Notes: a model not told the origin generated them from the sequence alone. A stretch of 20,000 bases of DNA from an uncultured virus (IMG/VR IMGVR_UViG_3300017958_000005) (IMGVR_UViG_3300017958_000005:58821-78820); one strand, 5' to 3'. Positions 225 to 20,000 are shown, numbered from the stretch's first letter. Made by a program: numbers and translations.

Positions 225-608
225 ATGAGTGATACAACTAACGAATGGGGCGAAGATCTGCAAGAGGTAGAGCGTCGACAGCAATTCACCGACCGGTTTA
301 ACGAGTTGATGGACTTGACCGACTACCCGCCATTTTCAATCAATCTTGAAAAACACAACGAGTATCGCGAAGAAGTCATGGCCTACAGCGTGAAAATCTC
401 TGAACAAATTCGTGAAAGCGACGCAATCGAAGATCGACCATTCTCAACACTTATGGCGAAATGGGAAGATGACCTTGACGAGGCCAAACTCTACAAACAG
501 CGTTATGGTAGGGATTTTGTTGGCGCCCAGAAAGCGGCCGCAAAGAATGACGGCATCTCCATGCGTGACGTAAAGCCCATCGGACCACCATCAGCATATA
601 AAGACTGA
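225..608 (+). CDS. Hypothetical acidic protein, 127 aa
   Basis: Fills the gap between neighbours; TGA overlaps the next ATG by 1 nt at 608; plausible helical composition. Confidence 0.8.
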   Translation: MSDTTNEWGEDLQEVERRQQFTDRFNELMDLTDYPPFSINLEKHNEYREEVMAYSVKISEQIRESDAIEDRPFSTLMAKWEDDLDEAKLYKQRYGRDFVGAQKAAAKNDGISMRDVKPIGPPSAYKD

Positions 609-6932: not shown

Positions 6933-7559
6933 TTAGAACTCTTGGACATTGAAGCCAGCGGCATTCAGCATCGTGATTGGATCCTCACCGAGGGTTTCGT
7001 CTTCATCCGAACACGGCCCCCTGAGAGTTGCTGCGATCATAGCGGGGATGATTGCCTCGCGCAACACCGAAGCGGCACCTTGCGTGTATGCGACATTATC
7101 TTCCCACCAGATGTGTTCTTTATTAATATAACTATATGGCGCACTTATTAACATTACATTAGGAGAATCATCTACGCCGAGTGAAACGTGAGTCACAGTC
7201 ACGCATTCCCTTACGTTTTTATTGCCATCGGCAAATAATGCGGCAAGATTCTTCCCCGCCGTCATCTCCGGAGTTTGAGAATGAAATCCTTCGGCTACAA
7301 ACGTAACCTCGTCACAACCCCAAAAATACCTCATTGCGTGTAAAGCGCCAAGACACATCTCGAATCGTTCTTGCAAATCCTTCTTCATGAATTCACGAGT
7401 TAATTGGACAACAAGAGCAAGTTCGTCTCCTACCCACCCAAAGAAATTGAATGGGATATCCTTACCAACACCCTCATCAGCAATGAGAACTTCTTTCGCG
7501 ATCTGGGCAGAAGTCAGCGAAAGCGCAACCTTGGAATATATGTCTGGATATTGGTCCAC
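6933..7559 (-). CDS. Hypothetical protein, 208 aa
   Basis: Long ORF with globular-protein composition, tiles the minus-strand block; GTG start. Confidence 0.8.
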   Translation of the reverse strand: MDQYPDIYSKVALSLTSAQIAKEVLIADEGVGKDIPFNFFGWVGDELALVVQLTREFMKKDLQERFEMCLGALHAMRYFWGCDEVTFVAEGFHSQTPEMTAGKNLAALFADGNKNVRECVTVTHVSLGVDDSPNVMLISAPYSYINKEHIWWEDNVAYTQGAASVLREAIIPAMIAATLRGPCSDEDETLGEDPITMLNAAGFNVQEF

Positions 7560-7605
7560 GACTGGCTACAATAGTCCACGCACGCCAAAATCAAGGGAGA
7601 AATCA

Positions 7606-7944
7606 ATGGCAAGCAAGAAACCGGCAAAGAAAACCTCAGCGAAAAAGGCACCCGCCAAGAAAACGGCGCCAGCCTCAGGAAAGAAGACCGCTGCTGCTAA
7701 GAAATCCGCAGCAAAGAAGGCACCTGCAAAGAAGACACCTGCCAAGAAGGCACCTGCCAATGCAGCACCGAGGAAGCGCGCTCAGGCAACTGGCCCATAC
7801 GCTGGGAACAACACTGAAGCAAAACAGTTCACGGAAGCACCAGCACCTGCTCCTGCTCCGGTTGAGACCACAGCCGAAAAGATTGATATTGTCGTCGAGA
7901 AGCCATCTTGGCGCTCGCGTCTCGTGGCGGTCTTCAAAAAATAA
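7606..7944 (+). CDS. Histone H1-like Lys/Ala/Pro-rich (PAKK-repeat) protein, 112 aa
   Basis: MASKKPAKKTSAKKAPAKK...; SD AAGGGAG and TACAAT (7567-7572) upstream of ATG 7606; the track's start at 7387 would overlap the divergent gene. Confidence 0.85.
   Translation: MASKKPAKKTSAKKAPAKKTAPASGKKTAAAKKSAAKKAPAKKTPAKKAPANAAPRKRAQATGPYAGNNTEAKQFTEAPAPAPAPVETTAEKIDIVVEKPSWRSRLVAVFKK
7714..7758 (+). repeat. 3 x 15-nt coding tandem repeat (KK[A/T]PA)
   Basis: AAGAAGGCACCTGCA / AAGAAGACACCTGCC / AAGAAGGCACCTGCC. Confidence 0.85.
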
Positions 7945-7962
7945 CCGCGTAGGGCAGGCCTG

Positions 7963-8640
7963 ATGGCACTCGAAGTTCGAGACAATTTCATCAATCCAGA
8001 GTTATTCGAAGCAGTTCGCCTCGATGAAGGTTTCTTTCCGCCAGAAATGGAAGGAATCAACATTGGCGAATACCTGAACGAATTTCATGACGAAGAATGT
8101 GACTGCTACGCCCCATACATGTTTTGGGATGGATGGCATAATTCGCCCGCAGACACAACTCGCAAAAAAGTAATTCAAGAAATTTGGTCGACCCCGGGCT
8201 TGCTCCCATGCGACATTGATGACGTCGTCGGCTTCGAATACTGGACACGAACGTTTCTACCCGGACAATTTTTGGCTGTGCACTGCGATGAAGACACGTT
8301 CTTGTACCAGAAATCGCAAATATTTCGTGGCCCCATCATCGGATGTGTTTGGTATGGGCCATCCGAAGCAACAGGCGGATTTCTTGAACTTCACGACAAT
8401 ATCCTCAAAGAAGGAAGAGGCGTTTTAGAACGCAATTTACTTGACCCGATGATGTCACCCATTGAAGAACGTGAGCGAATTAAGTACCAGCCGAATCGCC
8501 TAGTCGTATTCGACGCCGGTCACCGCCTACATGAAACAACGAAGACACTTTCAGGAAAACGTCAGGTCATGGTAATCAATGTTTGGCTCAAAGATAAACC
8601 TCCGACTGCTCTAGAGACTGGTGAGTTCTTTTACGAATAA
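7963..8640 (+). CDS. 2OG-Fe(II) oxygenase superfamily protein
   Basis: HCD facial-triad motif, GGFLEL, PNRLVVFDAG-x2-LH, distal RQVMVINVW. Confidence 0.85.
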   Translation: MALEVRDNFINPELFEAVRLDEGFFPPEMEGINIGEYLNEFHDEECDCYAPYMFWDGWHNSPADTTRKKVIQEIWSTPGLLPCDIDDVVGFEYWTRTFLPGQFLAVHCDEDTFLYQKSQIFRGPIIGCVWYGPSEATGGFLELHDNILKEGRGVLERNLLDPMMSPIEERERIKYQPNRLVVFDAGHRLHETTKTLSGKRQVMVINVWLKDKPPTALETGEFFYE

Positions 8641-8647
8641 AACAATT

Positions 8648-9283
8648 ATGCAACTCGAACGAATATCGCTTATTGAACTTGGTGTTTGGGTAGGAAAAAT
8701 TGATGAGGTCAACCCAAAACAAATCTCGTCGGATATCCATAATTACGCTCAAACCATCGATCAGGAATGCCCTGATTACGGCGTAATTTCGCGCGGGTTC
8801 GTTCAATTTGAAGATTTGGTAATGCCGATCACACCGGAAGTTACAAAACTGGAAACAGCCGTAAAAGCGCGCCTCCATCATCTAACAGGCAGAGACTACG
8901 AGATCCACGATATGTGGGCTGTTGACCTCGAATACAATCAGAGTGTCATCGCCCACTCACACCACTCCAATCTGCACGTACATCCCCACGAGTACTACAG
9001 CGTCACTTATTATCCGCAAGTGCCCGAGGGCTCCGCAGAACTCGTTTTCAACTACGACTACTGCAACATGATGAGCGGCACCGCAAGTGTGAAACCGGAA
9101 GTCGGAACATGTGTCATTTTCAACTCATACATCCAACACATGACGTCTCGCAACAAATCCGATACGTCTCGTCTCGTTGTAAGCATGAACCTCGGGCCCG
9201 TTGACCCAACGGTTGACCCAAATGCTGATTGGTCCGTGTACTGGAACAGGCCTGTAATCGAAAATCCCGAGCCGCATAAATGA
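8648..9283 (+). CDS. 2OG-Fe(II) oxygenase-like protein (TIGR02466-like, HxH type)
   Basis: IAHSH, SVTYYPQVP, ELVF, PEVG-x2-VIFNSYIQH, RLVVSMN; ATG 8648 preferred over the overlapping GTG 8621. Confidence 0.82.
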   Translation: MQLERISLIELGVWVGKIDEVNPKQISSDIHNYAQTIDQECPDYGVISRGFVQFEDLVMPITPEVTKLETAVKARLHHLTGRDYEIHDMWAVDLEYNQSVIAHSHHSNLHVHPHEYYSVTYYPQVPEGSAELVFNYDYCNMMSGTASVKPEVGTCVIFNSYIQHMTSRNKSDTSRLVVSMNLGPVDPTVDPNADWSVYWNRPVIENPEPHK

Positions 9284-9696
9284 CAACAGAACATCGCCGC
9301 TCACCTCGCAAAAAAGTTACAAACATCGAACGGGTTGGCGCATGGGGAAAAGTGCGGTACCTGCATCATCTCGAGTGCGGCCATGTCGAGTCGCGCCCAA
9401 GAGCGTCGTCGGCCCCACGCCTCGGCTGTGTGATGTGCTTGCGCATCTCCGAAAAAGAAGCGGAACTCGAAGATTTACTAATAGTTAACGAGAATCCTGT
9501 TGACATTGGACACGATGCAGGCCAAGATGAAATACGACTCGCAAAGACAGCCAGCATCATCGCCAAAAGATTCGGTGTGCCAGTCGAAGCAGTCGACATA
9601 CACGTTGCAATTGGGCCAGAAGGCACACTCGTCTACAACGGTGGACTGGTGTTCCTCTCTGGGGAAGACATATTCCGGTTAGTGGGAGAACGATGA
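9280..9696 (+). CDS. Hypothetical protein with zinc-finger-like N-terminus
   Basis: HLECGH ... CVMC; ATGA overlaps at both ends. Confidence 0.78.
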   Translation: MTTEHRRSPRKKVTNIERVGAWGKVRYLHHLECGHVESRPRASSAPRLGCVMCLRISEKEAELEDLLIVNENPVDIGHDAGQDEIRLAKTASIIAKRFGVPVEAVDIHVAIGPEGTLVYNGGLVFLSGEDIFRLVGER

Positions 9697-10028
9697 ACAG
9701 TAAGGTTGAGCCGGTACCAGCCGGCGCCGGTGCATGCTACGAAATGCCAGTGTCTTGGTGGTTTCCGCATTTTGATCCAAGACGAAATGGTTCAATCGCA
9801 GTGATGCGACAGAACCGTGAAAAAGCGATCGAAATCTGCAATTCATGCGAATACAAAGAACAGTGTCTTGAGTGGAGCCTGCATCACGAACCTCTAGGCG
9901 TGTGGGGAGGTATGCCAGAATACCCACGAGCGGTTCTTCGAGCGAAGCGTGGTATCGAATGCTCGAACAATGCGTTTATCTCTGTTCCCGGAAAAGGGGT
10001 ACGTAACGTATCTGCGGTGAAAGGCTGA
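9693..10028 (+). CDS. whiB: WhiB-family Fe-S transcriptional regulator
   Basis: AC-x6-WWFP ... ICNSCEYKEQC (four Cys in total) and GVWGG turn; SD GGGAG. Confidence 0.92.
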   Translation: MNSKVEPVPAGAGACYEMPVSWWFPHFDPRRNGSIAVMRQNREKAIEICNSCEYKEQCLEWSLHHEPLGVWGGMPEYPRAVLRAKRGIECSNNAFISVPGKGVRNVSAVKG

Positions 10029-11803
10029 TGTATGGCCACACCGAAACTCTCCTGTCGAAACTAGACGGCGTCGTAAAATCTGCGAACGGATGGGAAGCAC
10101 GATGCCCATGCCGTCAAGATGACCGCAACCCATCACTTTCCGTTAAAGAAAATTCCGATGGAAAAATCGTCATGTTCTGTCACAGGAACAACGGATGTGG
10201 TGCCGCTGAAATCTGCTCGGCTATCGGTTTGCAACTTTCAGATTTAATGCCACCATCTGACAAGACGCAAACTGCATCAATCGATTATCCAAAACAGGAA
10301 CGTCCAAAACTAAAGTTCGTCGCAAAATACGAATACCGCGACGCCGACGGAACCCTGCTTTTTGAGAAAGTTCGATACACCGAACCCGATGGCAAAAAGA
10401 CTTTCCGCCAACGCAAGCCCGACGGATCTGGGGGCTGGACATACAGCCTTGGAGACACCCCAAAGGTGTTATATAACCTGCCCGCCGTCTTAGAGGCAAA
10501 AGCAAACGGAGAACCAATCTTTCTCGTGGAAGGAGAGAAAGATGCAGACGCTCTCATCTCAATGGGTGCTTGTGCCACAACTATGCCCGGAGGGGCAGGT
10601 AAATGGCTCGACATACACACTGAGGCTCTCGCTGGAGCAATCGTGGACGTTATCGTCGACAACGACGAGCCCGGACGCCGACATGCACACCTTGTCGCAG
10701 GCATCCTCACTCAAGCCGGTTCGGACGTAGCGATTTGGCGAAGCCAAACTCAAAAAGACATTTACGACCACCTGCAAGCGGGTGGGTCAACCACCGACCT
10801 CGAACAGATCCCATACGAAACCCTGATCTCTGAGTTTGCTGGCCAAACAATCGAGCCAGAAGAACAGGAAGAAGACGGTGACGAGCCAGAACTTGTCGAG
10901 CACACTCCGCAAGAAAAAGCAATCCTCGACATCGCCCATCTGCTCACGTCAGATAAAAACCCAAAACACATTCTTCTAAAAATCGCTGACATCGCCTTAT
11001 CACAAGGCCAAGAGTTCTCGCAGCCAGATCCGGGCCGACTGGTGAACTGGGATGACTTCGTCATGGAGGAAACTGACGATTCGTATGAATGGCTCCTACC
11101 CGGACTATTGGAAAAACAAGAACGAGTAATGGTCGTAGCCGCTGAAGGTGTTGGCAAAACCATGCTTGCCCGTCAAGTGGCGATCTGCTCAGGATACGGA
11201 GTTCACCCATTCACTTTTCAACGCATGCCACGTGTACGCACGCTCACCGTTGACCTAGAGAACCCTGAGCGAATCATCAAACGAACGTCCGACAAAATCG
11301 TCGGAGCAGCAAAGTCAATGGGTTACGAACGCAAAGGTGACAACCATCTTGTTATCAAGCCGGACGGCCTGAACCTGCTATCGGTGCAAGACCGAATGAT
11401 CTTGGAACAACACATCGAGGCAGTCGAGCCAGAAATCCTAGTAATGGGACCCCTCTACAAAGCATTTCTCGACCCCGGTACTAAAACTTCTGAAGCGGTT
11501 GCAATCGAAGTCGCAAAATATCTCGACCGCATACGGTCAACCTACAACTGTGCGCTCTGGCTGGAACACCACGCTCCACTTGGAGCATCACAAACCTCTC
11601 GCGAGTTACGTCCGTTTGGATCCGCTGTCTGGTCACGTTGGCCAGAGTTTGGACTCGCGTTACAGCCAGACCCCGTTCGCCCTCACGATTTTGTTTACGA
11701 CGTAAATCATTTCCGTGGTGCTCGAGACCTTCGCGCATGGCCCACGCAAATGACACGCGGCAAGAAGTTTCCGTTCGAAGTATTGGAGTTTATGAAAGTA
11801 TGA
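10028..11803 (+). CDS. DNA primase-helicase (Zn-binding + TOPRIM + RecA-like AAA_25/RepA helicase)
   Basis: ARCPC-x2-DD-x2-PSLSV ... MFCH-x4-C; FLVEGEKDADAL; DNDEPG; Walker A AAEGVGKT; DLEN; LEHH; RPFGS. Confidence 0.92.
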   Translation: MYGHTETLLSKLDGVVKSANGWEARCPCRQDDRNPSLSVKENSDGKIVMFCHRNNGCGAAEICSAIGLQLSDLMPPSDKTQTASIDYPKQERPKLKFVAKYEYRDADGTLLFEKVRYTEPDGKKTFRQRKPDGSGGWTYSLGDTPKVLYNLPAVLEAKANGEPIFLVEGEKDADALISMGACATTMPGGAGKWLDIHTEALAGAIVDVIVDNDEPGRRHAHLVAGILTQAGSDVAIWRSQTQKDIYDHLQAGGSTTDLEQIPYETLISEFAGQTIEPEEQEEDGDEPELVEHTPQEKAILDIAHLLTSDKNPKHILLKIADIALSQGQEFSQPDPGRLVNWDDFVMEETDDSYEWLLPGLLEKQERVMVVAAEGVGKTMLARQVAICSGYGVHPFTFQRMPRVRTLTVDLENPERIIKRTSDKIVGAAKSMGYERKGDNHLVIKPDGLNLLSVQDRMILEQHIEAVEPEILVMGPLYKAFLDPGTKTSEAVAIEVAKYLDRIRSTYNCALWLEHHAPLGASQTSRELRPFGSAVWSRWPEFGLALQPDPVRPHDFVYDVNHFRGARDLRAWPTQMTRGKKFPFEVLEFMKV

Positions 11804-12282
11804 AACTGGTTGATCTACACCCGTGGGAGTATGACCATGCGCTGAGTGTTGCTGCTCGCCGGTGTGCTGCCAACTGGGGTAAACAAGATGCTCCGCATTA
11901 CCACCGCAAGAACATGGAGGACGACCGGACTGCTCAAGCAGCGGCTTGCGTCTGCGAGTTGGCTGTCGCAAAAGCAACGAACCGCTATTGGTCTGGACAT
12001 GTTTGGCACAAGAGCGAACATCACTTGTATCGGGATCTCGCCGATGTAGGTGAAAACATTGAAGTCCGACGTATCCGCACCCGCATGTCTGCCGCTGTAA
12101 GGCGACACCAGTTGGGAAAAGGTTTAGTATTATTTGTAGCAAGGCCTGTATTGCCAGAAATGACACAAGTCGAAATATTTGGCTGGAAAAAATATGACGA
12201 GGCATGGGAAATCGGCGAACCGGCCTCATATGACCCCGACAACACCCGCGTAATCGGAGTTGAACATTTGGAACAATTATGA
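11800..12282 (+). CDS. Hypothetical protein, possible PD-(D/E)xK restriction-endonuclease-like fold, 160 aa
   Basis: ATGA overlap with the primase stop gives a start at 11800; CELAVAK ... ADVGENIEVR resembles E...D...ExK with Arg in place of Lys. Confidence 0.65.
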   Translation: MKLVDLHPWEYDHALSVAARRCAANWGKQDAPHYHRKNMEDDRTAQAAACVCELAVAKATNRYWSGHVWHKSEHHLYRDLADVGENIEVRRIRTRMSAAVRRHQLGKGLVLFVARPVLPEMTQVEIFGWKKYDEAWEIGEPASYDPDNTRVIGVEHLEQL

Positions 12283-12953
12283 GCGACGACAGTGGAAAAG
12301 CCCTATCACGAGAATTCTTAGCCGAACGTGACCTGCGCATCTTCAAAATGAGGCAGGCCGGCGTGACGACAACTGAAATTGCGCGACGCTTCAATGTCAG
12401 CACATCAGTTGTGTCGAAAGCGGTCGGTCGTCAACTCGAAAAAATGAACCGGGAAGCCATGATGGCTTACCCTGAAGTTTTGCGAATGGAACTGGAACGC
12501 TTAGATGCGCTACAAGCCGCAATATGGCCGATGACACAACATCGACGAGTGACCCTTGACGATGGGCAAGAAGTTTCAGTTGAACCTGACATGAAAGCAA
12601 TTCAGCAGGTGCTGAGCATCATGGATCGTCGCTCAAAACTTCTTGGAATGGACCAGAACAACCTCACCGTTCAAATGGACATTTCCACAGACACCGCGAC
12701 CCCGATCCGAGTTTCCATGGCAAGCGAAACCGACACGGGTGCCGCACCAGTCGACGCATTTGACCCTAAAGAAGAAGCCCGCCAACTACTAGAACTCATG
12801 GGCAGATCCGGCGTCCTCCCAGACGCAGAAGTGCAGCAAATGTTAGGAACAGGGACAGAAGAGGAACAAGACATCGAGGAAGCCGAGATCGTCGAAGTTA
12901 TCCGAGATGTTGAAGTGCTAGAAAATTACAGAGGCAACGATGAGTCAGATTGA
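12279..12953 (+). CDS. HTH DNA-binding protein, terminase small subunit-like
   Basis: N-terminal HTH (GVTTTEIARRFNVSTSVV), ELERLDALQAAIWP, D-x-KAI-x2-VL-x-IMDRRSKLLG, acidic tail; pattern recalled from actinophage TerS-like proteins. Confidence 0.65.
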   Translation: MSDDSGKALSREFLAERDLRIFKMRQAGVTTTEIARRFNVSTSVVSKAVGRQLEKMNREAMMAYPEVLRMELERLDALQAAIWPMTQHRRVTLDDGQEVSVEPDMKAIQQVLSIMDRRSKLLGMDQNNLTVQMDISTDTATPIRVSMASETDTGAAPVDAFDPKEEARQLLELMGRSGVLPDAEVQQMLGTGTEEEQDIEEAEIVEVIRDVEVLENYRGNDESD

Positions 12954-13656
12954 CGGACTAGAACAACTTTACATTTTCCCGAACTTCCTAGACGAGGACG
13001 AAATCAACCTCTGGAACAATCGGCTCCGCGCAGAAACATTCTGGAAAGAAATTCCAGCGAGTGACCACGAACACTCAACTCAAAGAAACCACATTTCCAT
13101 CGACGGCGACAATATGCGCAACGACCTTTCATTGCTTCAAGACAATGAGGTCCTAGTATCAAAAATCAACGCCAAGGTCGAACAAATTTTTGGAGAACAT
13201 TTTCTCACGCCCACAACCCTTTACTATCGGAAGTGGGTTGCCGGAATGACACAAGGGCTGCACCATGACGCATGCTACGAGTATGGGGCAGGTCTAGATT
13301 GGCGCACAAACAGCGAAGCAAAAGAATCGGCTTTCCCTATTGCTTTTCACGACGTAGCAACCGTCCTCTACTACAACGACGATTTTGAAGGCGGAGAAAT
13401 CTTTTTCCACCGGCCAAATATCTCATTGAAGCCGGAACGCGGAATGCTCATCATGATGCCATGCACCGACAGATACATTCATGGAGTAAATGAGATCACC
13501 TCTGGCGAACGATACATTTCCGCCCACTTCTGGACACGTGCAAAAACGATCGCAATGTGTCTGGGTCACGATAAAACCCGCATAAATGAATGGATATACA
13601 AGTACTCCGACTGTGATAAGGTTGACCGCCTACTCAGTGACATGCGGCGACACTAG
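12940..13656 (+). CDS. Prolyl-4-hydroxylase-like 2OG-Fe(II) oxygenase
   Basis: HHD, VLYYNDDFEGGEIFF, KPERG, YIHGV-x2-ITSGERY; SD GAGG. Confidence 0.92.
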   Translation: MSQIDGLEQLYIFPNFLDEDEINLWNNRLRAETFWKEIPASDHEHSTQRNHISIDGDNMRNDLSLLQDNEVLVSKINAKVEQIFGEHFLTPTTLYYRKWVAGMTQGLHHDACYEYGAGLDWRTNSEAKESAFPIAFHDVATVLYYNDDFEGGEIFFHRPNISLKPERGMLIMMPCTDRYIHGVNEITSGERYISAHFWTRAKTIAMCLGHDKTRINEWIYKYSDCDKVDRLLSDMRRH

Positions 13657-13662
13657 AAAGAT

Positions 13663-13675
13663 GTAGTATCTAGAC
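13663..13675 (+). promoter_or_regulatory. Putative -10 element for a leaderless transcript
   Basis: G-TAGTAT (13664-13669), 6 nt, then ATG at 13676. Confidence 0.5.
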
Positions 13676-14035
13676 ATGAGCGAAGAATCAACAGAAATTG
13701 AAATCACCTCCATCGAGGATCTGCCCTCAGTCGACTCCGAACAGTTGGCCGAAGTCACCTCATCTCCATCGCATTTCCAATCCGTCCTACTAACCACGAA
13801 CGAGTGGGGAACATTTGAAGTTCGATGGAACGGCACCACTTTCATCCTCCTTAAGGGCATTGCAACACACACCTCTGAAGGAAAACCTCCAATTGTTTCG
13901 TACGAGGTTCTCGGACATCAAAACCCCGAGGAGGAAGTGGACTATCCGTTCCCGCTTGACCTTTCAGTTCTCGAGCGAATCGGTCGCGTCCTCATCCACA
14001 CCGTCAATACCGCTGCAAGCGAGGACGACGAGTAA
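13676..14035 (+). CDS. Hypothetical acidic protein, 119 aa
   Basis: Tiles the gap between the oxygenase and carbamoyltransferase genes. Confidence 0.75.
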   Translation: MSEESTEIEITSIEDLPSVDSEQLAEVTSSPSHFQSVLLTTNEWGTFEVRWNGTTFILLKGIATHTSEGKPPIVSYEVLGHQNPEEEVDYPFPLDLSVLERIGRVLIHTVNTAASEDDE

Positions 14036-14044
14036 ACTGCCAGT
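14032..14044 (+). promoter_or_regulatory. Putative -10 element for a leaderless transcript
   Basis: G-TAAACT (14033-14038, includes the upstream stop codon), 6 nt, then GTG at 14045. Confidence 0.55.
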
Positions 14045-15487
14045 GTGCGCATCCTAGGGATTAACGACTCAAGCCACGACGCAGCAGTAAGTGTAATTGA
14101 CAACGGAGAAATCGTTTTTGCGGCGCACAGCGAACGCTACAACAAACAAAAAAACACTTACGCAATTTCTGACGACCTGATTGAAGAGGTCATGTCGGAT
14201 CCGCCCGACTTGATTGCTTACTTTGAGAAACGTCCATTTAAGCGGGCTCGCAGATTTAGACACGGAGGCATCAACGGTGCCTACCAAAACCTATACAAAA
14301 AACTGCATAAATATCAATGGCCAAAAGAGGTGCAGGTCTCACACCACTACAGTCATGCAGCCGCCGGATATTTCACGTCGACATTTGCGGAAGCAACAGT
14401 AGTTGTACTAGATGCCATCGGCGAATTTGAAACCGCAACGATTTGGGACGCCAGCGGAAACAATATCCGCAAACGAGAATCGCTACGGTACCCGATTTCA
14501 TTCGGATTGTTCTACAGCGCATTCACCGATCTAGTCGGGCTAAAACCCGGCTTTGACGAATACGTACTTATGGGAATGGCCGCCTACGGAGACCCATCCC
14601 GATACGCGGCCGAGATCAACAAAATGTTCCCAAAGTGGAACAGCCAGACACAGAACTTCCACCACGGAGTCAACTGGCCGCACCCAATCATCTGCGAACA
14701 AGACAAATACGATATAGCAGCAGCAGTTCAACTCATATATCAAAATCGTTTAATTGACCTGATGCGCTATGTGCGGCGCGACTCACCCACACAAAACCTT
14801 GTTTTCATGGGCGGCTGCGCACTCAACTGTTCAGCCAACACGAAACTTCTTGACATCTGGGACGAAGTTTGGATAATGCCGAATCCCGGCGACGCCGGCT
14901 CAAGCCTCGGTGCCGCACTAGCAATCTACGGATCACACATCGAATGGCGCGGCCCATACCTCGGTCACGACATCGGCGGCGACTTTTACCCATCCGAAGA
15001 CATCATTGACGTACTGCTACGAGACAAAATTGTTGCAGTCGCAAACGGAAGAGCCGAATTCGGTCCGCGAGCATTGGGGAACCGTAGCCTTTTGGCTGAT
15101 CCCCGACCAGCCGACATGAAAGATCGCGTGAACCAAGTTAAAAAACGGGAACCTTTCCGTCCATTCGCACCAATCATTATGGAAGATCACGTGTCCGAAT
15201 GGTTCGAAATTGACCGCCCCGTCCCATACATGCAATTTGCCGTAAAAGCGCGCTTTCCAGAACTCATGCCGGCCGTAGTGCACCACGACGGAACATCACG
15301 AATCCAAACCGTGAACGAATATCAACACCCCGGCCTCTACGACGTTTTATCAATGTGGTATCACCAAACCGGGATGCCAGTTCTATTAAATACCAGTCTC
15401 AATGTTCGTGACCAGCCTATGCTCAACGACGAACTCGATGCCCTAGTATGGCAAGAAATGAACCCACAAGTAAAACTTGTAACGTGA
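14045..15487 (+). CDS. O-carbamoyltransferase, NodU/CmcH/TobZ family
   Basis: ILGIN-x3-HDAA, SERY, HHYSHAA, DAIGE, MGMAAYG, GGCALNC, PGDAGSSLG, EFGPRALGNRS, KKREPFRPFAP, VVHHDGTSRIQTV, LNTSLN. Confidence 0.96.
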   Translation: MRILGINDSSHDAAVSVIDNGEIVFAAHSERYNKQKNTYAISDDLIEEVMSDPPDLIAYFEKRPFKRARRFRHGGINGAYQNLYKKLHKYQWPKEVQVSHHYSHAAAGYFTSTFAEATVVVLDAIGEFETATIWDASGNNIRKRESLRYPISFGLFYSAFTDLVGLKPGFDEYVLMGMAAYGDPSRYAAEINKMFPKWNSQTQNFHHGVNWPHPIICEQDKYDIAAAVQLIYQNRLIDLMRYVRRDSPTQNLVFMGGCALNCSANTKLLDIWDEVWIMPNPGDAGSSLGAALAIYGSHIEWRGPYLGHDIGGDFYPSEDIIDVLLRDKIVAVANGRAEFGPRALGNRSLLADPRPADMKDRVNQVKKREPFRPFAPIIMEDHVSEWFEIDRPVPYMQFAVKARFPELMPAVVHHDGTSRIQTVNEYQHPGLYDVLSMWYHQTGMPVLLNTSLNVRDQPMLNDELDALVWQEMNPQVKLVT

Positions 15488-15496
15488 GGAAATACG

Positions 15497-16741
15497 ATGG
15501 CACCAAAACACTTTGCCGACAACTGGATCGCTGACTGGTCGCAAAATGACGCAGATCGAATCAAACGAGAGCAACGTTTTGCTCACTTCCGCGCACACAC
15601 CCACATCCACGGTCTTCCAAAATTTTCGAAGTTGACCAAACCTGACAAACAGTATTGGGCGGCCCTCACATACAAAGACGTAGCAGAAATTTCTCGAAAT
15701 CAAGAGATTTTCTGTGCAAGCGAAGGGTATCTGATTACAGATTTGCCGCGTGACATTTTCGAATATTTTGGTTCCCTACTGGCGCTCGACAATCCTCGAC
15801 ATAACGAAGTTCGGTCAATCGTTCAGCGAGCATTTGGGGCATCAAACGTAGCCAAACTAACCACGATGATCGAACAAGTCACAGCGGATATTGTCGACGA
15901 TGTAATCGAGAAACACCCTGAGCGAAAGTGTGACATTCACACTGAACTCTCAGCGCGACTACCAACTGAGATCACCGCGATCATGATGGGTGTGGCTGAC
16001 GACGACAAAAAATGGATGTACGACCGTGTTCGTGAAATCACTGGCAACAGTGATCCCGAATATCACGGTGGAGAGCGCTCAGACACATTTCTTAATGCTT
16101 GCATCGCAATTACCGAATATGCACACAAACTGGCCGCAGAACGCCGTGTGGAACCCAAAGACGACGTCACAAGCCTTCTTTGCAACGCAAAAAATGGTGG
16201 TGTTCTCGAAGATAAAGACTTCGGCTCACTATTCCTACTCCTCATCATGGGAGGAATCGAAACCACCCAGCACGTCATCTCCTACGGGATTAAAGCCTTC
16301 ACCGAAAACCCCGATCAACGTGAACTTCTGTGGAATGACTTCGACAAATACTGGTATGGAACAGTAGAAGAAACCGCACGCATGCAATCCCCAGCAATGC
16401 ATTTCCGACGCACCGCAACCCAAGACACCATCCTGAATGGCACCGAAATTGCCAAAGGTGAAAAAGTTGTTGCATGGTATTGCTCAGCCAACCGTGACGA
16501 AACAGTTTTCCGAAATGCTCAACGGTTCGACATCACTCGCGACTTCCATGAAACACCACACTTCGCCTATGGTGCTCCCGGAATCCATTACTGCATTGGG
16601 GCACCCATTGCTCGCGCGGAAATCAAATCGGCTTTCCAAAACATCATCGAAAAAATGCCTGACCTGCGATTCTCCGGCGAAATCGACTATGCCTACAGCA
16701 AATGGGGCAACGGAATGAAACGTATGAGCGCAGAATGGTAA
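15497..16741 (+). CDS. Cytochrome P450, resembling actinobacterial CYP124/125/142 enzymes
   Basis: FGSLLALDNPRH-x3-R, I-helix GGIETT, K-helix EETAR, FRRTA, SANRDE, RFDI-x-R, heme loop YGAPGIHYCIG; SD GAGGA. Confidence 0.96.
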   Translation: MAPKHFADNWIADWSQNDADRIKREQRFAHFRAHTHIHGLPKFSKLTKPDKQYWAALTYKDVAEISRNQEIFCASEGYLITDLPRDIFEYFGSLLALDNPRHNEVRSIVQRAFGASNVAKLTTMIEQVTADIVDDVIEKHPERKCDIHTELSARLPTEITAIMMGVADDDKKWMYDRVREITGNSDPEYHGGERSDTFLNACIAITEYAHKLAAERRVEPKDDVTSLLCNAKNGGVLEDKDFGSLFLLLIMGGIETTQHVISYGIKAFTENPDQRELLWNDFDKYWYGTVEETARMQSPAMHFRRTATQDTILNGTEIAKGEKVVAWYCSANRDETVFRNAQRFDITRDFHETPHFAYGAPGIHYCIGAPIARAEIKSAFQNIIEKMPDLRFSGEIDYAYSKWGNGMKRMSAEW

Positions 16742-17877
16742 CACCAGTCCCAATGAACGGCGATGTTTACCTACAAAGCCTCAAAACGAACGGTGATTTT
16801 GATTACCACAAAATGCTCGCCTGCTTATGGGAAATGGACGACTATCAAAAGCAGGGGTGGTTGAATGATCACACCGTGGACACATCAGATATTGGCGTCA
16901 CGTCAACTATTAGGCATGAGGTGTTCAACAACGATGACATCGGAAAAATGTTTAGATACAAAATCAACAGCGATGGTCATGTAGGAGAAGAGTTCGTTCA
17001 CAACCCTGACATCATCGCAATGGGCTGCTCCGTCACTTATGGTGCGGGCATGCACACAGAATTTGCATGGCCAAACATTGTGCGTGAAGCCACCGGGAAA
17101 ACGGTAAATGTGTTGGCTTTTCCCGGTGCAAGCATCATGTCGCTTACGCAGCATCTATACAGACACGTCGCACAATATGGTTGGCCAAAACAAATCATGT
17201 TCCTCATCCCCGACTTGTGGAGAACCGAACCACAAGTCCAATGTATTTCTAGGGATGGCCAATACCGAAATGTTGACGGCAAAGAAATGCGCATCAACGA
17301 TAGTTTCAGTAAGAAAAATTTACGCTACAGCGCTGAACGCACACTACGACTCAGCATGCTTGCGCTGTTAAATCTACAGAACATCTGCAAAAGCCTAAAT
17401 ATTGATTACAAAACGTTTTCTTGGCACAGAGAAACACATTACGTTCTCAAAACATCCGAATACAGTTCATACCTATCTGCACTCGAACACTTCGTGCCAC
17501 CAAACAGCGATGCTCCCGGTCAAAAATGGGGTGTACCCATCGAAATGTTCCACACCGGAACCGACATGTGCCCCTGCGGACTACAACCCGGAACACCAAC
17601 ACAACAAGACATGTGGAACATAGCGCTTGACATCGGCGAACACCCCGGAATGCACCTCAACATTCACTTCGCCGAAATTTTCATCAACGCTCAAATCGAA
17701 CAAAACGTCATCGACAAAATCAAACCATTCCACAACCTGTACACGCCACAAGGCGTAGACGCGATCAAACGTCTACGGACAAAAAATCATTCGTCTCGTG
17801 AATTCATGCGAGCAATCAAAAAAGAGAACGGAGAATGGATCACAGATGAATACGCAGATCCTGTACCTCAGAATTAA
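16735..17877 (+). CDS. SGNH/GDSL-like hydrolase or acyltransferase fold protein, paralog 1 (start uncertain: 16702, 16735 or 16753)
   Basis: IIAMGCSVTYG (block I-like), WP, VNVLAFPGAS, D-x3-HPG near the C-terminus. Confidence 0.7.
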   Translation: MVTPVPMNGDVYLQSLKTNGDFDYHKMLACLWEMDDYQKQGWLNDHTVDTSDIGVTSTIRHEVFNNDDIGKMFRYKINSDGHVGEEFVHNPDIIAMGCSVTYGAGMHTEFAWPNIVREATGKTVNVLAFPGASIMSLTQHLYRHVAQYGWPKQIMFLIPDLWRTEPQVQCISRDGQYRNVDGKEMRINDSFSKKNLRYSAERTLRLSMLALLNLQNICKSLNIDYKTFSWHRETHYVLKTSEYSSYLSALEHFVPPNSDAPGQKWGVPIEMFHTGTDMCPCGLQPGTPTQQDMWNIALDIGEHPGMHLNIHFAEIFINAQIEQNVIDKIKPFHNLYTPQGVDAIKRLRTKNHSSREFMRAIKKENGEWITDEYADPVPQN

Positions 17878-17949
17878 AATCAAAAAAATCGTATACAAGA
17901 TTCGTAACTGGAAAAATCGCAAAAAGCCAAAGACCTATATTTACTAACC

Positions 17950-18840
17950 ATGAAACACCAAGACAACAATGGGGACCAATTCTTAGAGTTCTTCCCCAAC
18001 ATGCATCACCTGTTAAATCTAGGCGACAACGAACCGCGCAAACCCTTCGTTGAGAACCCCGACATCGTCGCCGTCGGATGTTCCAACACTTGGGGTGTAG
18101 GCGTTGACGACCACGAAGTCTGGCCGGAAGTGCTCGCGCAACACCTCGGCATGACAGTCAACGTAGTTGCCGAACCCGGACGCGACATCGGCACCCTCGT
18201 CCCACGAATCTTCAACCACATCGAACAATGGGGAAAACCAACATACATATGCTGCCTGTGGCCCGAAATTTGGCGAGCACACGTCAACGTTTGGAAAACC
18301 CCACACAATCCGTGGATCGGCTCAACACGCTTCAACCAAACCCTTGCAGACAATTCAGAACTCGACACCGTCAACCTGTCAATCCACTACTCAGGTGACC
18401 CAACCCATTACGTCGTAGGTCAAACACCATACATGCATGTATCAAACGAAGGATGGCGCGACGAGCGGCCAAAACCGTATCGGCTATGGCCAGAACAATT
18501 CATCACACAAAACCTCGAATACATGTTCATGCTAGAAAAATTCGGAAAAATTCTCGGCATCGAGGTGTACCAAACAAGTTGGTCAGCAAGCACCAACAAC
18601 ACACTGAAACCAGTCCTCGAATCATTCCGTCTGCCACGCCACGAATATCGTGACACCCGACCACGCGTCGACCCACGATTCAAACCAGAACACTGCACCG
18701 ACCACCAGCCACTACTACACCAGCAGGCCTACTGGGAATTCGGCAACGACGGACACCACCCCGGAATTCACGACCACATCCACATCGCCGAACACTTCGC
18801 CGGCCACATGCAACACGACCCCCTCATCAAAAACAGATAA
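17950..18840 (+). CDS. SGNH/GDSL-like hydrolase or acyltransferase fold protein, paralog 2
   Basis: IVAVGCSNTWG, WP, VNVVAEPG, DGHHPG; colinear motifs with the upstream gene. Confidence 0.72.
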   Translation: MKHQDNNGDQFLEFFPNMHHLLNLGDNEPRKPFVENPDIVAVGCSNTWGVGVDDHEVWPEVLAQHLGMTVNVVAEPGRDIGTLVPRIFNHIEQWGKPTYICCLWPEIWRAHVNVWKTPHNPWIGSTRFNQTLADNSELDTVNLSIHYSGDPTHYVVGQTPYMHVSNEGWRDERPKPYRLWPEQFITQNLEYMFMLEKFGKILGIEVYQTSWSASTNNTLKPVLESFRLPRHEYRDTRPRVDPRFKPEHCTDHQPLLHQQAYWEFGNDGHHPGIHDHIHIAEHFAGHMQHDPLIKNR

Positions 18841-18873
18841 ATCTAACGGCACCAACTACAGCCAAAAACAAAA

Positions 18874-19878
18874 CTACCCCCCCAAATAACCCCCCGGCGG
18901 ACGCAAAAACACACCCCTACCCGCCAACACATCACAATTCTCCCAACGAGGCTCCGAACCCAACTCCGGATGAACCTCATGACACCACATAGACCACATC
19001 CGCCTACCCTCAGGCACAAACCCCCCATTCACCGCATGCAACCCACGATGCAAATCAACCACCAAAAAATCATCAACACACCAATCCCACCACAACTGCG
19101 AAACACCACCACCAAAACACGCCCCACGCACCACATCACGAACCAAACCCAACCACAACACATCACGCGAACACGGCACCCGACCACCAACACGCCACAA
19201 CAACCCCCCATCACCCAACCACGAATCAGAAGCAACCGGCAACCTCAACACACGACGATCAGAACAAAAATGCGACTCCACCAACGGCCGCGAAAACGCC
19301 AAAAACTCAAAACCACCCTCAAACGACACCAACACCTTCTCACCACCCTCCCAAACACCAACAACCTCAAAACCAACCGCACGCGCACCCTTAAAAGGAC
19401 ACTGATAATCCAACTCCAACACCCACACCTCATCCAACCACGACCTCAACGAACCCGACACCAACCCCAAAACATCACACATATCCACAAACCCAGTAGA
19501 ACCACCATGAGGAGCAAACAACCCAGCACCCCCACGCCCCACAAAACCCTCCATCCACCAACCCCCAACCAACTGAGGAAAACGCCACCCCTGATTCTCC
19601 AAATGCCACATCAACACCAACTCATCAACACCAACATCCCCCCGACCAGCCAAAATCCCCACATAATCCGTAAACGTCCCCCACTTCCAACCACCCTCAA
19701 CACCCTCAAAACCCGGCGTCACCCCCAACAACCCACCAACCCCAAACAACACACCCGCACGACCAACCTCATCCAAACCCCAACCACGCAAACAAAACCC
19801 ACCACCATCAACCAACGCAGACGCCAACACCCCAACATCCACCCCAACATCATCAAAAACCTCAAAATCAAAAGCCAC
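18874..19878 (-). CDS. TauD/TfdA-like 2OG-Fe(II) dioxygenase, compositionally very biased, about 334 aa
   Basis: Ordered motifs GFCLRG, WHLE, GGSTGFVDM, RPLVESH-x4-RRVL, W-x3-DFLVVDL-x4-H, RRM; GTG at 19878 lies 6 nt after a TATTTT box; frame is open further to 19992. Confidence 0.72.
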   Translation of the reverse strand: MAFDFEVFDDVGVDVGVLASALVDGGGFCLRGWGLDEVGRAGVLFGVGGLLGVTPGFEGVEGGWKWGTFTDYVGILAGRGDVGVDELVLMWHLENQGWRFPQLVGGWWMEGFVGRGGAGLFAPHGGSTGFVDMCDVLGLVSGSLRSWLDEVWVLELDYQCPFKGARAVGFEVVGVWEGGEKVLVSFEGGFEFLAFSRPLVESHFCSDRRVLRLPVASDSWLGDGGLLWRVGGRVPCSRDVLWLGLVRDVVRGACFGGGVSQLWWDWCVDDFLVVDLHRGLHAVNGGFVPEGRRMWSMWCHEVHPELGSEPRWENCDVLAGRGVFLRPPGGYLGG

Positions 19879-19891
19879 AACACCAAAATAC
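19879..19891 (-). promoter_or_regulatory. Putative -10 element for a leaderless transcript
   Basis: Minus strand reads G-TATTTT-GGTGTT-GTG (box at 19890-19885). Confidence 0.4.
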
Positions 19892-19899
19892 AACAACCA

Positions 19900-19933
19900 C
19901 CCCACCCCAAAACAACACCCCAACCCCAACCCC
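19900..19933 (-). other. G-quadruplex-capable motif (five GGGG runs)
   Basis: Minus strand GGGG-TT-GGGG-TT-GGGG-TGTTGTTTT-GGGG-T-GGGG. Confidence 0.55.
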
Positions 19934-20000
19934 ACCGATAAATCTAACCAACCATCACCAAACCCAAAAAAATCACACACCTCCCCCCACACAGCGCGGT

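Follow-up and report, generated by a model that had tools for sequence, protein, structure and literature searches.

A mirror-image strand-bias domain anchored at a single site in an actinophage-like contig and in related phages

What process can write more than a kilobase of one DNA strand mostly in two letters, C and A, across a gene that is retained? This question is raised by the right-hand end of the window analyzed here, which is the final 20 kb of a 78.8-kb (78,820-bp) actinophage-like contig from an uncultured virus. The original prediction, made from the sequence, described a steep strand-specific gradient from 13000 to 20000 that was independent of gene direction. It linked the bias to C->T and A->G changes on a minus strand that is persistently exposed or selected, and it placed the cause at or beyond the right edge, in a replication origin, a genome terminus or a packaging start.

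Composition of the window and position of the switch

The spot counts on which that prediction was based are exact: 19, 41, 45, 55 and 56 of 60 bases are C or A in the lines starting at 1681, 17581, 18781, 19741 and 19861. Measured continuously, the C+A fraction of the plus strand climbs from about 0.55 to 0.64-0.70 at 17.5-18.8 kb and to 0.8-0.9 at 18.85-20.0 kb. Over the whole contig the values per kb are 0.45-0.58 until 76 kb, followed by 0.61, 0.71 and 0.85. The 60-nt lines of the contig minus its last 3 kb (n=1,263) contain on average 31.8 C+A (sd 4.1, maximum 45), while all 19 of the 19 lines from 18841 to 19980 contain 44-56; 100-nt bins outside the last 3 kb (n=759) have a mean C+A fraction of 0.529 (sd 0.055, maximum 0.71). 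In the final 1-kb window the GC skew is -0.715 and the AT skew +0.666. Runs of pure C/A occur at 19720 (37 nt) and 19890 (47 nt), and no other such run of at least 20 nt exists anywhere in the contig. The strand bias is therefore confirmed, and it is stronger than first described.

The predicted gradient holds as a graded rise; it is not a smooth slope of 7 kb, since 13000-17400 has baseline composition. The left arm consists of a graded tail of about 1.4 kb and a saturated plateau of 1.15 kb, together about 2.6 kb. The inner step up to the plateau has its change-point at 18,811 (support 18,653-18,852). The saturated left core of 1,154 nt has a GC skew of -0.70 and a TA skew of -0.65.

The bias is anchored at the right edge, and the flip expected near 20 kb was found there. 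The maximum-likelihood change-point is window position 19,994 (support 19,992-19,998), where plus-strand C+A falls from about 88% to about 26%; the sequence across the switch was read in contigs L001 and L005. Independent contigs that extend beyond the contig end show the same sign reversal no more than a few bases from 19,994 and, beyond it, a second arm that is G/T-rich and 1-2 kb long. The first bases of this right arm (19995..20000, plus strand) are G/T-rich, and the arm continues in L001 and L005 over window-equivalent positions 20,001 to about 22,000. Past the contig end, C+A per 200 nt is 0.26, 0.34, 0.38, 0.41 and 0.39, then 0.44-0.51, with a return to baseline after about +2 kb; the right core has a GC skew of +0.35 and a TA skew of +0.27. 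The whole feature is thus a mirror-image keto/amino domain of about 4.5 kb centered on 19,994, and the window holds its left half. On both sides the strand that runs outward 5'->3' is G/T-rich. This applies to spacers and silent sites and, in weaker form, to sites that change amino acids.

The skew is local. Baseline is regained within about 2-2.6 kb on each side, with a mild shift on the far side (third-position C+A beyond 2 kb is 0.47-0.64 over 10 kb, versus 0.63 on the left) and no replichore-wide reversal. Assemblies are often interrupted at the switch or close to it. Six bases past the flip the contig of the window stops, and a contig from run X2 begins at the same base; the longer contigs L001, L005 and L006, together with a 9,279-nt Logan contig, cross it.

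Genes inside the domain

The baseline for third codon positions, taken from plus-strand genes at 7387-16741, is a plus-strand C+A fraction of 0.626 (1843/2945). Against this baseline the skew is not confined to the last gene. The plus-strand gene at 16702..17877 encodes a 391-aa product with no Pfam or PHROG match; its first half is at baseline (0.58), and its 3' half (from about 17452), which forms the outer tail of the left arm, reaches 0.74 (p 0.007). The next plus-strand gene, at 17950..18840 (296 aa, no family match), lies inside the arm and has a third-position C+A of 231/296 = 0.78 (p 5.6e-8). In chunks of 50 codons its values are 0.70-0.87, with the peak adjoining the core. Four-fold degenerate sites in this gene are A50 C53 G15 T11, two-fold sites are C:T 77:11 and A:G 39:7. 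Its product has an excess of Pro, His, Asn and Thr, with P at 8.1%, H at 7.8% and T at 5.4%. A C/A-rich spacer (18841..18873) separates it from a convergent gene, and the step to the plateau falls about here.

The saturated core is occupied by a minus-strand gene at 18874..19992 for a putative TauD/TfdA-family Fe(II)/2-oxoglutarate dioxygenase. Which codon starts it is uncertain, given how frequent GTG and TTG are in this stretch. On the sense strand 370 of 372 third positions are G or T, four-fold sites are A0 C0 G95 T94, two-fold sites are C:T 0:79 and A:G 2:74, and the keto fractions at codon positions 1, 2 and 3 are 0.84, 0.69 and 0.99. The amino acids are pushed toward Gly, Val, Leu, Phe and Trp (G 19.6%, V 14.0%, W 5.9%, C 3.2%). 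No Pfam family is hit by the window protein; a deep search with it resulted in 53 homologs at E<=1e-3. Twelve of the 13 homologs scanned match Pfam TauD (PF02668) at E<=0.01, and 10 of these matches exceed the curated cut-off. A profile of eight family sequences matches the TauD structure PDB 3swt (E 7e-4). In the alignment of these eight sequences H132-x-E134, H321 and R332 are invariant; H132, E134 and H321 would be the iron-binding His-x-Asp/Glu ... His triad of the family and R332 its 2-oxoglutarate-binding Arg. On this comparison the saturated block is a real gene, whose predicted catalytic residues are retained despite the recoding. The domain shows how far a strand bias can rewrite working genes.

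The right arm carries a DUF5872-like gene (+), a 152-aa ORF (+) and a macro-domain gene (-), with third-position plus-strand C+A of 0.13, 0.40 and 0.34. At positions 1+2 the skew peaks beside the flip, from where C+A goes from 0.88 to 0.65 along TauD and from 0.29 to about 0.5 in the right-hand gene. Spacers are skewed as well as genes, and among codon positions the order is 3 > 1 > 2, as expected of a pressure at the DNA level that is filtered by selection on the proteins.

Each arm has a single strand polarity. Because each arm contains genes of both orientations (TauD on the minus strand with two plus-strand genes on the left; two plus-strand genes with the minus-strand macro gene on the right), the bias follows the DNA strand and not transcription, as had been proposed. 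The plus-strand gene at 17950 and the minus-strand TauD gene, with plus-strand C+A of 0.78 and 0.99 at third positions, illustrate this.

The same flip in related phages

The expectation that relatives would carry the feature was borne out. With the phage of the window designated lineage A, the same amino->keto flip (5'->3') sits over different genes in three other phage lineages; it maps to 7,654 of L008 in lineage B and to 2,172 of L025 in lineage D. The keto fraction changes over 600-nt flanks by 0.54, 0.44 and 0.50 in A, B and D, and at none of the three loci is there a step of opposite polarity greater than 0.20. In all three the G/T-rich strand runs 5'->3' away from the sign change. The arms in B and D end abruptly at gene borders (about 10,065-10,234 and about 3,891), with no fading.

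In lineage B the flip falls on the ATGA stop/start overlap of two co-directional genes, inside an operon. Judged by its five homologs, which are 36-99% identical and conserved to the C-terminus, the upstream gene is a real one. Its reading direction is toward the flip and its sense strand is rich in C and A. It is probably a helicase-loader gene; among six members of its family, three have hits to the PHROG 'helicase loader', the best at E 5.8e-6. The G/T arm of B carries a minus-strand WhiB gene (Pfam 1.6e-13) and a minus-strand gene for an HslV-like peptidase (PHROG 5e-23), both with C/A-rich sense strands. The two-fold sites of WhiB are C:T 25:1 and A:G 24:1. These two genes adjoin plus-strand genes with G/T-rich sense strands. 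The sense strand is therefore C/A-rich in the 17950 and macro genes of A and in the WhiB, HslV-like and helicase-loader-like genes of B, and a transcription rule that requires a G/T excess on the sense strand of every affected gene fails in both lineages.

In lineages A and D the genes beside the flip diverge, and for this reason transcription is there inseparable from replication. In D the skew stops where the diverging operon meets convergent genes. The 13.8 kb of D contain only two perfect copies of TTATCCACA, the consensus DnaA box; these and one single-mismatch site all lie at 2088-2120, a trio that spans 33 nt, 52 nt from the flip. A 12-mer common to phages A and D begins 19 nt past the flip in A, and 11-19 nt past it across both.

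With identities of only 29-36%, the TauD homologs of lineages A, C and D are all located in saturated arms; B has two copies, one of which is also in such an arm. Because silent sites would have been randomized long before such divergence was reached, the force that maintains the bias must still act.

Candidate explanations

The domain is real, anchored at one site, independent of gene orientation and recurrent in related phages, and its recoded gene has been kept. A strand-asymmetric process at the DNA level would begin at one fixed site and run outward both ways for 1-2.5 kb. Most likely this site would be a divergent start of DNA synthesis, either the replication origin of the phage or a site that initiates synthesis in an equivalent way. 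In its vicinity the outward, leading-type strand would either stay single-stranded for long or be made first by a polymerase prone to G.T mispairs, would gain C->T and A->G changes until silent sites saturate, and would have the proteins recoded wherever selection permits. We rate the chances that the domain is the footprint of such a fixed, bidirectional start of synthesis as about even. Both kinds of change are needed on the outward strand because the two-fold degenerate sites are saturated. The C->T/A->G idea of the original prediction fits, in that the polarity is as expected for an outward 5'->3' strand exposed or newly made in replication; of its three candidate sites the origin is the best supported, and terminus and packaging start are poorly supported. 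We infer that the process would be mutational, that it would be DNA synthesis, and which enzyme or exposure would be causal; persistent single-strandedness is one possible cause.

The synthesis reading has parallels. Mitochondrial heavy and light strands, the analogy drawn in the original prediction, differ through C->T and A->G changes on the strand thought to be single-stranded in replication, with shifts in protein composition. The strong bias, the changes behind it and the shifted proteins are alike here; the mitochondrial asymmetry is genome-wide and graded, with silent sites below about 100%, whereas here it is a local mirror pair. In lineage A a gene for SSB lies 3.3 kb to the right of the flip and a primase-helicase gene 8 kb to the left. 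In mutation-accumulation lines of the actinobacterium C. glutamicum, the leading strand of the wild type favors both kinds of change, with counts of 185 vs 105 for C->T and 48 vs 13 for A->G (PMC6159521). Asymmetry around replication origins, where the leading strand has more G and T and the skew reverses at the origin, shares with the domain the polarity of the sign change, the combination of GC and TA skew, the independence from orientation and the C->T and A->G changes. It is, however, 'typically around 2.5%' according to the database paper PMC8941118, compared with 88-99% at third positions here, and it spans a whole replichore, whereas the arms measure 1-2.5 kb, some with abrupt ends, and amino acids are rewritten. 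A precedent for the kilobase scale comes from the ColE1 plasmid, where the initiating Pol I gives way to Pol III gradually 'over at least 1.3 kb' (Allen et al. 2011, PMC3167613). The ColE1 footprint is likewise a kb-scale zone at a fixed leading-strand start with a different polymerase and a distance-dependent, strand-specific pattern; in contrast to the domain it is experimental, made with an engineered error-prone Pol I and one-directional, and not an evolutionary domain of base composition.

Several results count against a start of synthesis, among them the short reach of the skew and the abrupt arm ends in B and D described above. No cluster of DnaA boxes lies at the flip of A or B, and no AT-rich unwinding stretch at any of the three flips. 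Across a further 67 inverted pairs of DnaA boxes from viral contigs the mean change is -0.004 (31/67 positive), like that at 119 control positions; because box pairs elsewhere carry no flip, the boxes in D are a single coincidence of uncertain weight. Polarization of the strain differences in the G/T arm of B gives 6 that move toward keto, 15 that move away from it, 2 neutral and 2 unpolarizable ones (per site 6/659 toward and 15/1737 away), and no variant falls at 17,079-20,424 of A among the 40 of 97 variants listed (four runs). Neither these strain differences nor the listed variants indicate that mutation input is at present raised or biased. The roughly 89 kb of A sequence revealed no DNA polymerase gene.

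A general form of the synthesis reading is offered tentatively, as rather doubtful: some phages would start synthesis at a fixed site of nucleotide scale, the first 1-2.5 kb of the outward strand would be long single-stranded or the uncorrected product of a G.T-mispairing polymerase, and a bias of more than 100 to 1 would write a two-letter-biased code into the resident genes. If this is true, the flips would mark origins at base resolution from sequence, and the domains would be natural experiments in the tolerance of enzymes to recoding. In NucS/EndoMS hosts, whose repair sees G/T-type and not C/A-type mismatches, the keto/amino axis may then tie to the GRINS process considered below.

Strong divergent transcription from the switch, possibly with R-loops, would have exposed non-template strands gain C->T and A->G changes, and read-through would skew genes of the 'wrong' orientation. 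It predicts the identical polarity, and in A and D the arrangement of the genes agrees with it, as does the point where the skew stops in D. G-rich non-template strands favor R-loops, and RNA libraries contain contigs of the region, without strand information. We consider transcription unlikely, however, given the flip of B at the overlap of co-directional genes, with its left gene read toward it, and given that the skew opposes the direction of transcription in four genes, namely the WhiB and HslV-like genes of B and the macro and 17950 genes of A. A sigma-70-type scan resulted in no promoter-like sites at the flips of A and B, a weak test for actinobacterial or phage promoters.

It also seems unlikely that the segregation of bases was itself selected, such that a strand of only C/A or only G/T, free of Watson-Crick hairpins and palindromes, provides a structure-free loading or unwinding zone or escapes nucleases that recognize palindromes. 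This would agree with the near-saturation across lineages with such diverged TauD proteins, the low diversity in the A domain, the abrupt arm ends and the excess of B strain differences away from keto, as if these were mildly deleterious. Strong selection would be needed at silent sites that number in the hundreds, and it would have to work against the amino acids of the protein itself. Avoidance of hairpins and palindromes alone gives no reason for a flip of sign at a point.

WhiB has an actinobacterial host range, and the WhiB genes here indicate such a host. This setting suits the GRINS process of actinobacterial genomes, which is linked to gene conversion and unexplained in mechanism, and which would here act on a single copy in an actinophage. 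GRINS (2021) are defined, in the part of PMC8256042 used here, as regions of >500 bp that have a counterpart of >80% identity elsewhere in the cluster or genome. That part describes intense correlated GC/TA skews in working genes, a third-position maximum and shifts in Gly/Val/Cys/Trp versus Pro/Thr/His/Gln, and it mentions single-copy skewed regions and overlaps with phage genes. The domain agrees in length (left core and arms both exceed 500 bp), in skew strength, in the correlated GC and TA skews of both cores, in the codon-position profile of TauD and in the composition of the TauD and 17950 proteins. GRINS are duplicated, however, and a blastn search of the 4.6-kb domain against 88.8 kb of this incomplete genome gave two 36-nt hits (83%), and no second copy; nor do purine/pyrimidine-collapsed 28-mers of the domain occur elsewhere in these 88.8 kb. 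The same part of the paper has both signs on one strand with abrupt changes, whereas the domain is a single mirror pair anchored at one point, phage-borne and covering several unrelated genes and spacers. The label names a phenomenon and supplies no mechanism, and we think it quite unlikely to be the answer.

A physical genome end at the switch, or a start of packaging or ejection with an exposed end-proximal strand, is very improbable. The contig ends at the flip would suit it, and a protein-primed linear genome would, as we infer, yield such a polarity at joined ends; however, three longer contigs and the 9.3-kb Logan contig pass through the site, the flip in B lies within an operon, a distance of about 45 kb separates the T4-type terminase gene from the switch, and packaging or ejection, being one-directional, would not produce two arms. 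An artefact of sequencing or assembly, as the breaks near the site might suggest, can hardly account for identical sequence in independent assemblies of several samples, which excludes an error of a single assembly, for the presence of at least 92% of sampled words in 13 DNA runs, for a strict 3-base periodicity in frame with the 53 homologs and the retained catalytic residues, or for the recurrence of the feature in diverged lineages.

Composition profile and flip in phage A

The domain of extreme strand composition at the end of the window is real, anchored to a site, independent of gene orientation, mirror-image, gene-recoding and recurrent in related phages. The original prediction had reported a strand bias near the right edge, with five spot counts of plus-strand C+A. 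All five proved exact on recounting, and the observation of the domain as a whole was confirmed and extended by a switch point (the flip), a second skewed stretch (arm) and recurrence in relatives. A single contig of 78,820 bp contains the window as its final 20 kb. Plus-strand C+A per kb is 0.45-0.58 across the first 76 kb of this contig and then reaches 0.61, 0.71 and 0.85. In 100-nt bins it climbs from about 0.55 to 0.64-0.70 between 17.5 and 18.8 kb, and from 18.8 kb up to the end it stands at 0.77-0.90; elsewhere in the contig the mean is 0.529 (sd 0.055, maximum 0.71), and the left end of the contig showed no comparable skew. The gradient had been placed at 13000-20000; the rise from 17.5 kb holds, whereas 13,000-17,400 is at baseline.

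Other contigs of the same phage (phage A) run beyond the window end. L001 has 7 mismatches to the window contig in an 8,051-nt overlap and extends 907 nt beyond it, while L005, with 8 mismatches in 9,400 nt, reaches 10 kb beyond. In these contigs the plus strand needs only a few bases to drop from 88-89% C+A to 26%, with a change-point at 19,994 (support 19,992-19,998); this is the sign change that had been anticipated near 20 kb. In the right arm C+A per 200 nt is 0.26, 0.34, 0.38, 0.41 and 0.39, then about 0.45, and baseline is reached by about +2 kb. The flip is also spanned by a 9,279-nt Logan contig. The window contig ends 6 bases past the flip, and a contig of run X2 starts at that same base. 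Since independent assemblies break at the same base and other contigs span the flip, the break is an assembly effect of the odd DNA and not a genome end. Two contigs other than the window contig stop 864 and 907 nt past the flip (window 19,995-20,000 = contig end; L005 9999); the extreme two-letter composition seems to fragment assemblies.

The idea that the domain is a hypermutated copy of another region was rejected: a search with purine/pyrimidine-collapsed 28-mers gave 0 matches (0.68 expected by chance), no terminal overlap was found and direct blastn was also without a match.

The most strongly skewed gene lies on the minus strand at 18874-19992. In this frame the fraction of keto bases (G/T) is 0.84/0.69/0.99 at codon positions 1/2/3. 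Third positions are G or T in 370 of 372 codons, four-fold sites comprise A0 C0 G95 T94, and two-fold sites have C:T 0:79 and A:G 2:74. The product matched no Pfam or PHROG model, an example of how skewed domains, which also break assemblies, hide genes from profile searches. An exhaustive search returned 53 homologs; 12 of the 13 that were scanned matched the TauD/TfdA dioxygenase family at E<=0.01, and 10 of these scored above its curated cut-off. An H-x-E motif, a second His and an Arg are invariant across the alignment. Homologs with 36-37% identity have an ordinary composition, and one with 67% identity shares the richness of the window protein in Gly, Val, Trp and Phe. Judged from its sequence, the saturated third positions, the homologs and the invariant catalytic residues argue that TauD is a working gene, recoded to G/T-rich codons wherever the protein permits. 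The domain is also an extreme natural test of protein robustness, with catalytic residues retained and 99% of silent sites forced to G/T; much of the amino-acid make-up of the dioxygenase is G/T-driven, and neighbouring genes on the other strand are pushed the opposite way.

Related flips and the role of transcription

The claim that the bias follows the strand and not gene direction is borne out, in that each arm has skewed genes of both orientations. In phage A the sense strands of two plus-strand genes left of TauD are C/A-shifted, with third positions of 0.74 and 0.78 versus a baseline of 0.626 (p 0.007 and 6e-8). In the right arm a minus-strand macro-domain gene has a third-position plus-strand C+A of 0.34 and is shifted like its plus-strand neighbours.

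A look for the same gradient in related phages had been suggested, and we found flips in phage B and lineage D and a saturated TauD homolog in lineage C. Gene frames in skewed DNA were taken from phase analysis and profile matches, because longest-ORF frames are wrong there; tblastx synteny between A and B was dominated by compositional matches and was not used. Phage B is represented by contigs L008-L011, mutually 98-99% identical, with the flip at L008 7,654. The TauD homolog adjoining its arm (31-32% identity to the window TauD) is unskewed. In the 2.4-kb G/T arm, plus-strand genes have G/T-rich sense strands, the minus-strand genes for WhiB and an HslV-like peptidase have C/A-rich sense strands, and each gene is in exactly the saturated codon phase.

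The phage B flip lies about 25 nt beyond the ATGA stop/start overlap of two co-directional genes. The upstream gene is real, with five homologs and conservation as far as its C-terminus; 3 of the 6 members of this family matched the PHROG 'helicase loader', and A and D yielded no homolog. A promoter scan gave 0 promoter-like sites at the flips of A and B, and terminator-like sites at the phage B flip numbered 2, compared with 1.2 expected. Because this flip is inside a co-directional gene pair and genes of opposite orientation are skewed, a divergent promoter is excluded as the general cause.

Some smaller features of phage B were also seen. The C-terminal half of the helicase-loader-like gene (L008 7380-7500) has an insert of about 30-45 residues rich in Thr, Pro, Lys and Asn, which occurs only in B and its 65% relative, while three homologs at greater distance lack it; it resembles low-complexity growth driven by the C/A bias. 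A skewed TauD paralog at L008 9097-10050 is divided into two ORFs (155 and 148 aa), whereas the same-family protein P0008 (313 aa) is unsplit; the split is either a strain frameshift or stop or an assembly error. About 6-8 kb downstream of the main flip, contig L012 has two weaker G/T-rich blocks (5850-6450 and 8100-8700; keto fraction 0.62-0.71, with one codon phase reaching 0.94), which suggests secondary skew domains.

The TauD homolog of lineage C stands at the start of contig L007, with 83% keto third positions. In lineage D (L025) the flip is at 2,172 and precedes a 1.7-kb stretch in which one phase is at 0.9-1.0, TauD homolog included. Arms end abruptly in B and D, in the latter at about 3,891. 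All strong flips have one polarity, which is unchanged under reverse complementation, and steps of opposite polarity never exceed 0.20. Among 19 further viral loci with distant TauD homologs, some of them near-duplicates, 17 had no flip, 1 a moderate and 1 a strong one; the flip is therefore not a property of the TauD family. Arm proteins are about 30% identical across lineages and silent sites are still saturated; from this protein divergence we infer that the force is still acting in every lineage. Contig L021 has a 750-nt C/A-rich block at 18,700-19,450 (keto 0.31-0.40, one phase down to 0.08) that ends in a moderate amino-to-keto step (0.23), amino denoting C/A; the TauD homolog of that phage is only 29% identical.

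The flips were also inspected for site elements. Positions 2088-2120 of lineage D contain two perfect, inverted TTATCCACA sites, forming a 12-nt perfect inverted repeat, and a third similar site with one mismatch. We take this 9-mer to be the DnaA-box consensus. The two are the only perfect copies in the 13.8 kb of D, where length alone predicts about 0.1. No DnaA-box cluster occurs at the A and B flips, and at least 67 usable sites with inverted DnaA-box pairs in other viral contigs included none with a flip. A 12-mer is common to A and D, 19 and 11 nt past the flip, and absent elsewhere among 36 loci; having been spotted by eye in biased DNA, it is only suggestive as a site element. Small direct repeats flank the A flip (L001 8041-8123, window-equivalent 19,990-20,072), namely two 15-mers (80% alike, spaced 38 nt apart) and a tandem pair of 11-mers, TGGTGTATTCG and TGGTGTATTGG. 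They are indistinguishable from chance in such biased DNA and could be binding sites or chance.

Nature of the force and nearest known systems

The saturation of two-fold sites implies both C->T and A->G changes on the strand running 5' to 3' away from the flip, or selection of equal effect. Spacers are skewed as well as genes, and the skew decreases by codon position in the order 3 > 1 > 2; this order and the retained catalytic residues fit a DNA-level pressure filtered by protein selection. The skew stays local instead of running along a whole replichore, and the baseline on the far side differs only mildly.

The strain differences of A and B showed no sign of ongoing hypermutation, which agrees with selection of the composition itself as well as with mutation. 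In the B arm 6 differences were toward keto and 15 away from it, 2 were neutral and 2 could not be polarised, with about equal per-site rates, and none of the 40 of 97 phage A variants listed lay in window 17,079-20,424. These spectra rest on few differences and do not separate the two. Nor do they refute a mutational origin, because saturated sites cannot go further under a one-way bias.

In mutation-accumulation lines of C. glutamicum the leading strand preferentially gains C->T and A->G changes, attributed to G/T mispairs, and the mismatch endonuclease of actinobacteria cuts at G/T, G/G and T/T mismatches and leaves C/A ones uncut (PMC6159521). For ColE1, PMC3167613 describes a kb-scale zone beside the start site that is served by a different polymerase. 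Because of these parallels, the most economical reading is a fixed bidirectional start of DNA synthesis: synthesis would start from a fixed site in both directions and the skew domain would be its footprint. From our analysis we consider this the most likely origin of the domain, with about an even chance of being correct. If the flip is such a start, origins of uncultured phages would be readable from sequence with few-base precision.

Classical origin skew shares the polarity and the independence from gene orientation; however, the domain is far apart from it in magnitude and extent. The nearest published phenomenon is GRINS, skewed gene regions in actinobacterial genomes (PMC8256042). The domain resembles these in length, skew strength, correlation, third-position maximum and amino-acid shifts, but the duplication that defines GRINS was not found within the 88.8 kb examined. 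Full-text literature searches, subscription journals aside, listed no phage for which a keto/amino flip that is local, saturating and mirror-image had been described. The domain may tie the unexplained GRINS of actinobacteria to a site-anchored polar process, and the cause of GRINS would then be testable.

Genome setting of phage A

Phage A is a tailed phage. Its contig encodes a major capsid protein, portal, prohead protease, T4-type terminase and baseplate J protein, along with a class II ribonucleotide reductase, primase-helicase, WhiB, Cas4-like nuclease, ParB and an enzyme cluster of oxygenases, a carbamoyltransferase and a P450. WhiB proteins are not known outside Actinobacteria and their phages, and the WhiB gene suggests an actinobacterial host. 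At least 13 DNA runs with the label salt marsh metagenome contain phage A sequence. Nothing close was found among deposited phages, the sole match being 100 nt at 75% identity. Circular closure was not seen: neither the 907-nt nor the 10-kb extension has a match in the contig, and the genome must therefore exceed the contig in length. The parts of the genome examined yielded no DNA polymerase gene, and Rfam and tRNA scans gave no matches.

The major capsid gene region (window 2364-3680) has a G+C of 0.60-0.63 per kb, as compared with about 0.46-0.54 in the remaining window. Directly upstream, window 608-2212 encodes a protein of 534 aa that combines an N-terminal DUF3721 with a Zeta-toxin/AAA_33-type kinase domain and has a weak PHROG match to a minor head protein. 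The 185-aa protein of window 7387-7944 matches a histone H1-like nucleoprotein (HC2) at a sub-threshold level and may be DNA-condensing. An unusually oxygenase-dense set (window 7963-9283, 12940-13656, 14045-16741 and 18874-19992, and beyond the window in L005) includes three 2OG-Fe(II) oxygenases, TauD, a PhyH-like enzyme, a carbamoyltransferase, a cytochrome P450 and a macro domain; it may be a phage module for small-molecule or nucleotide modification.
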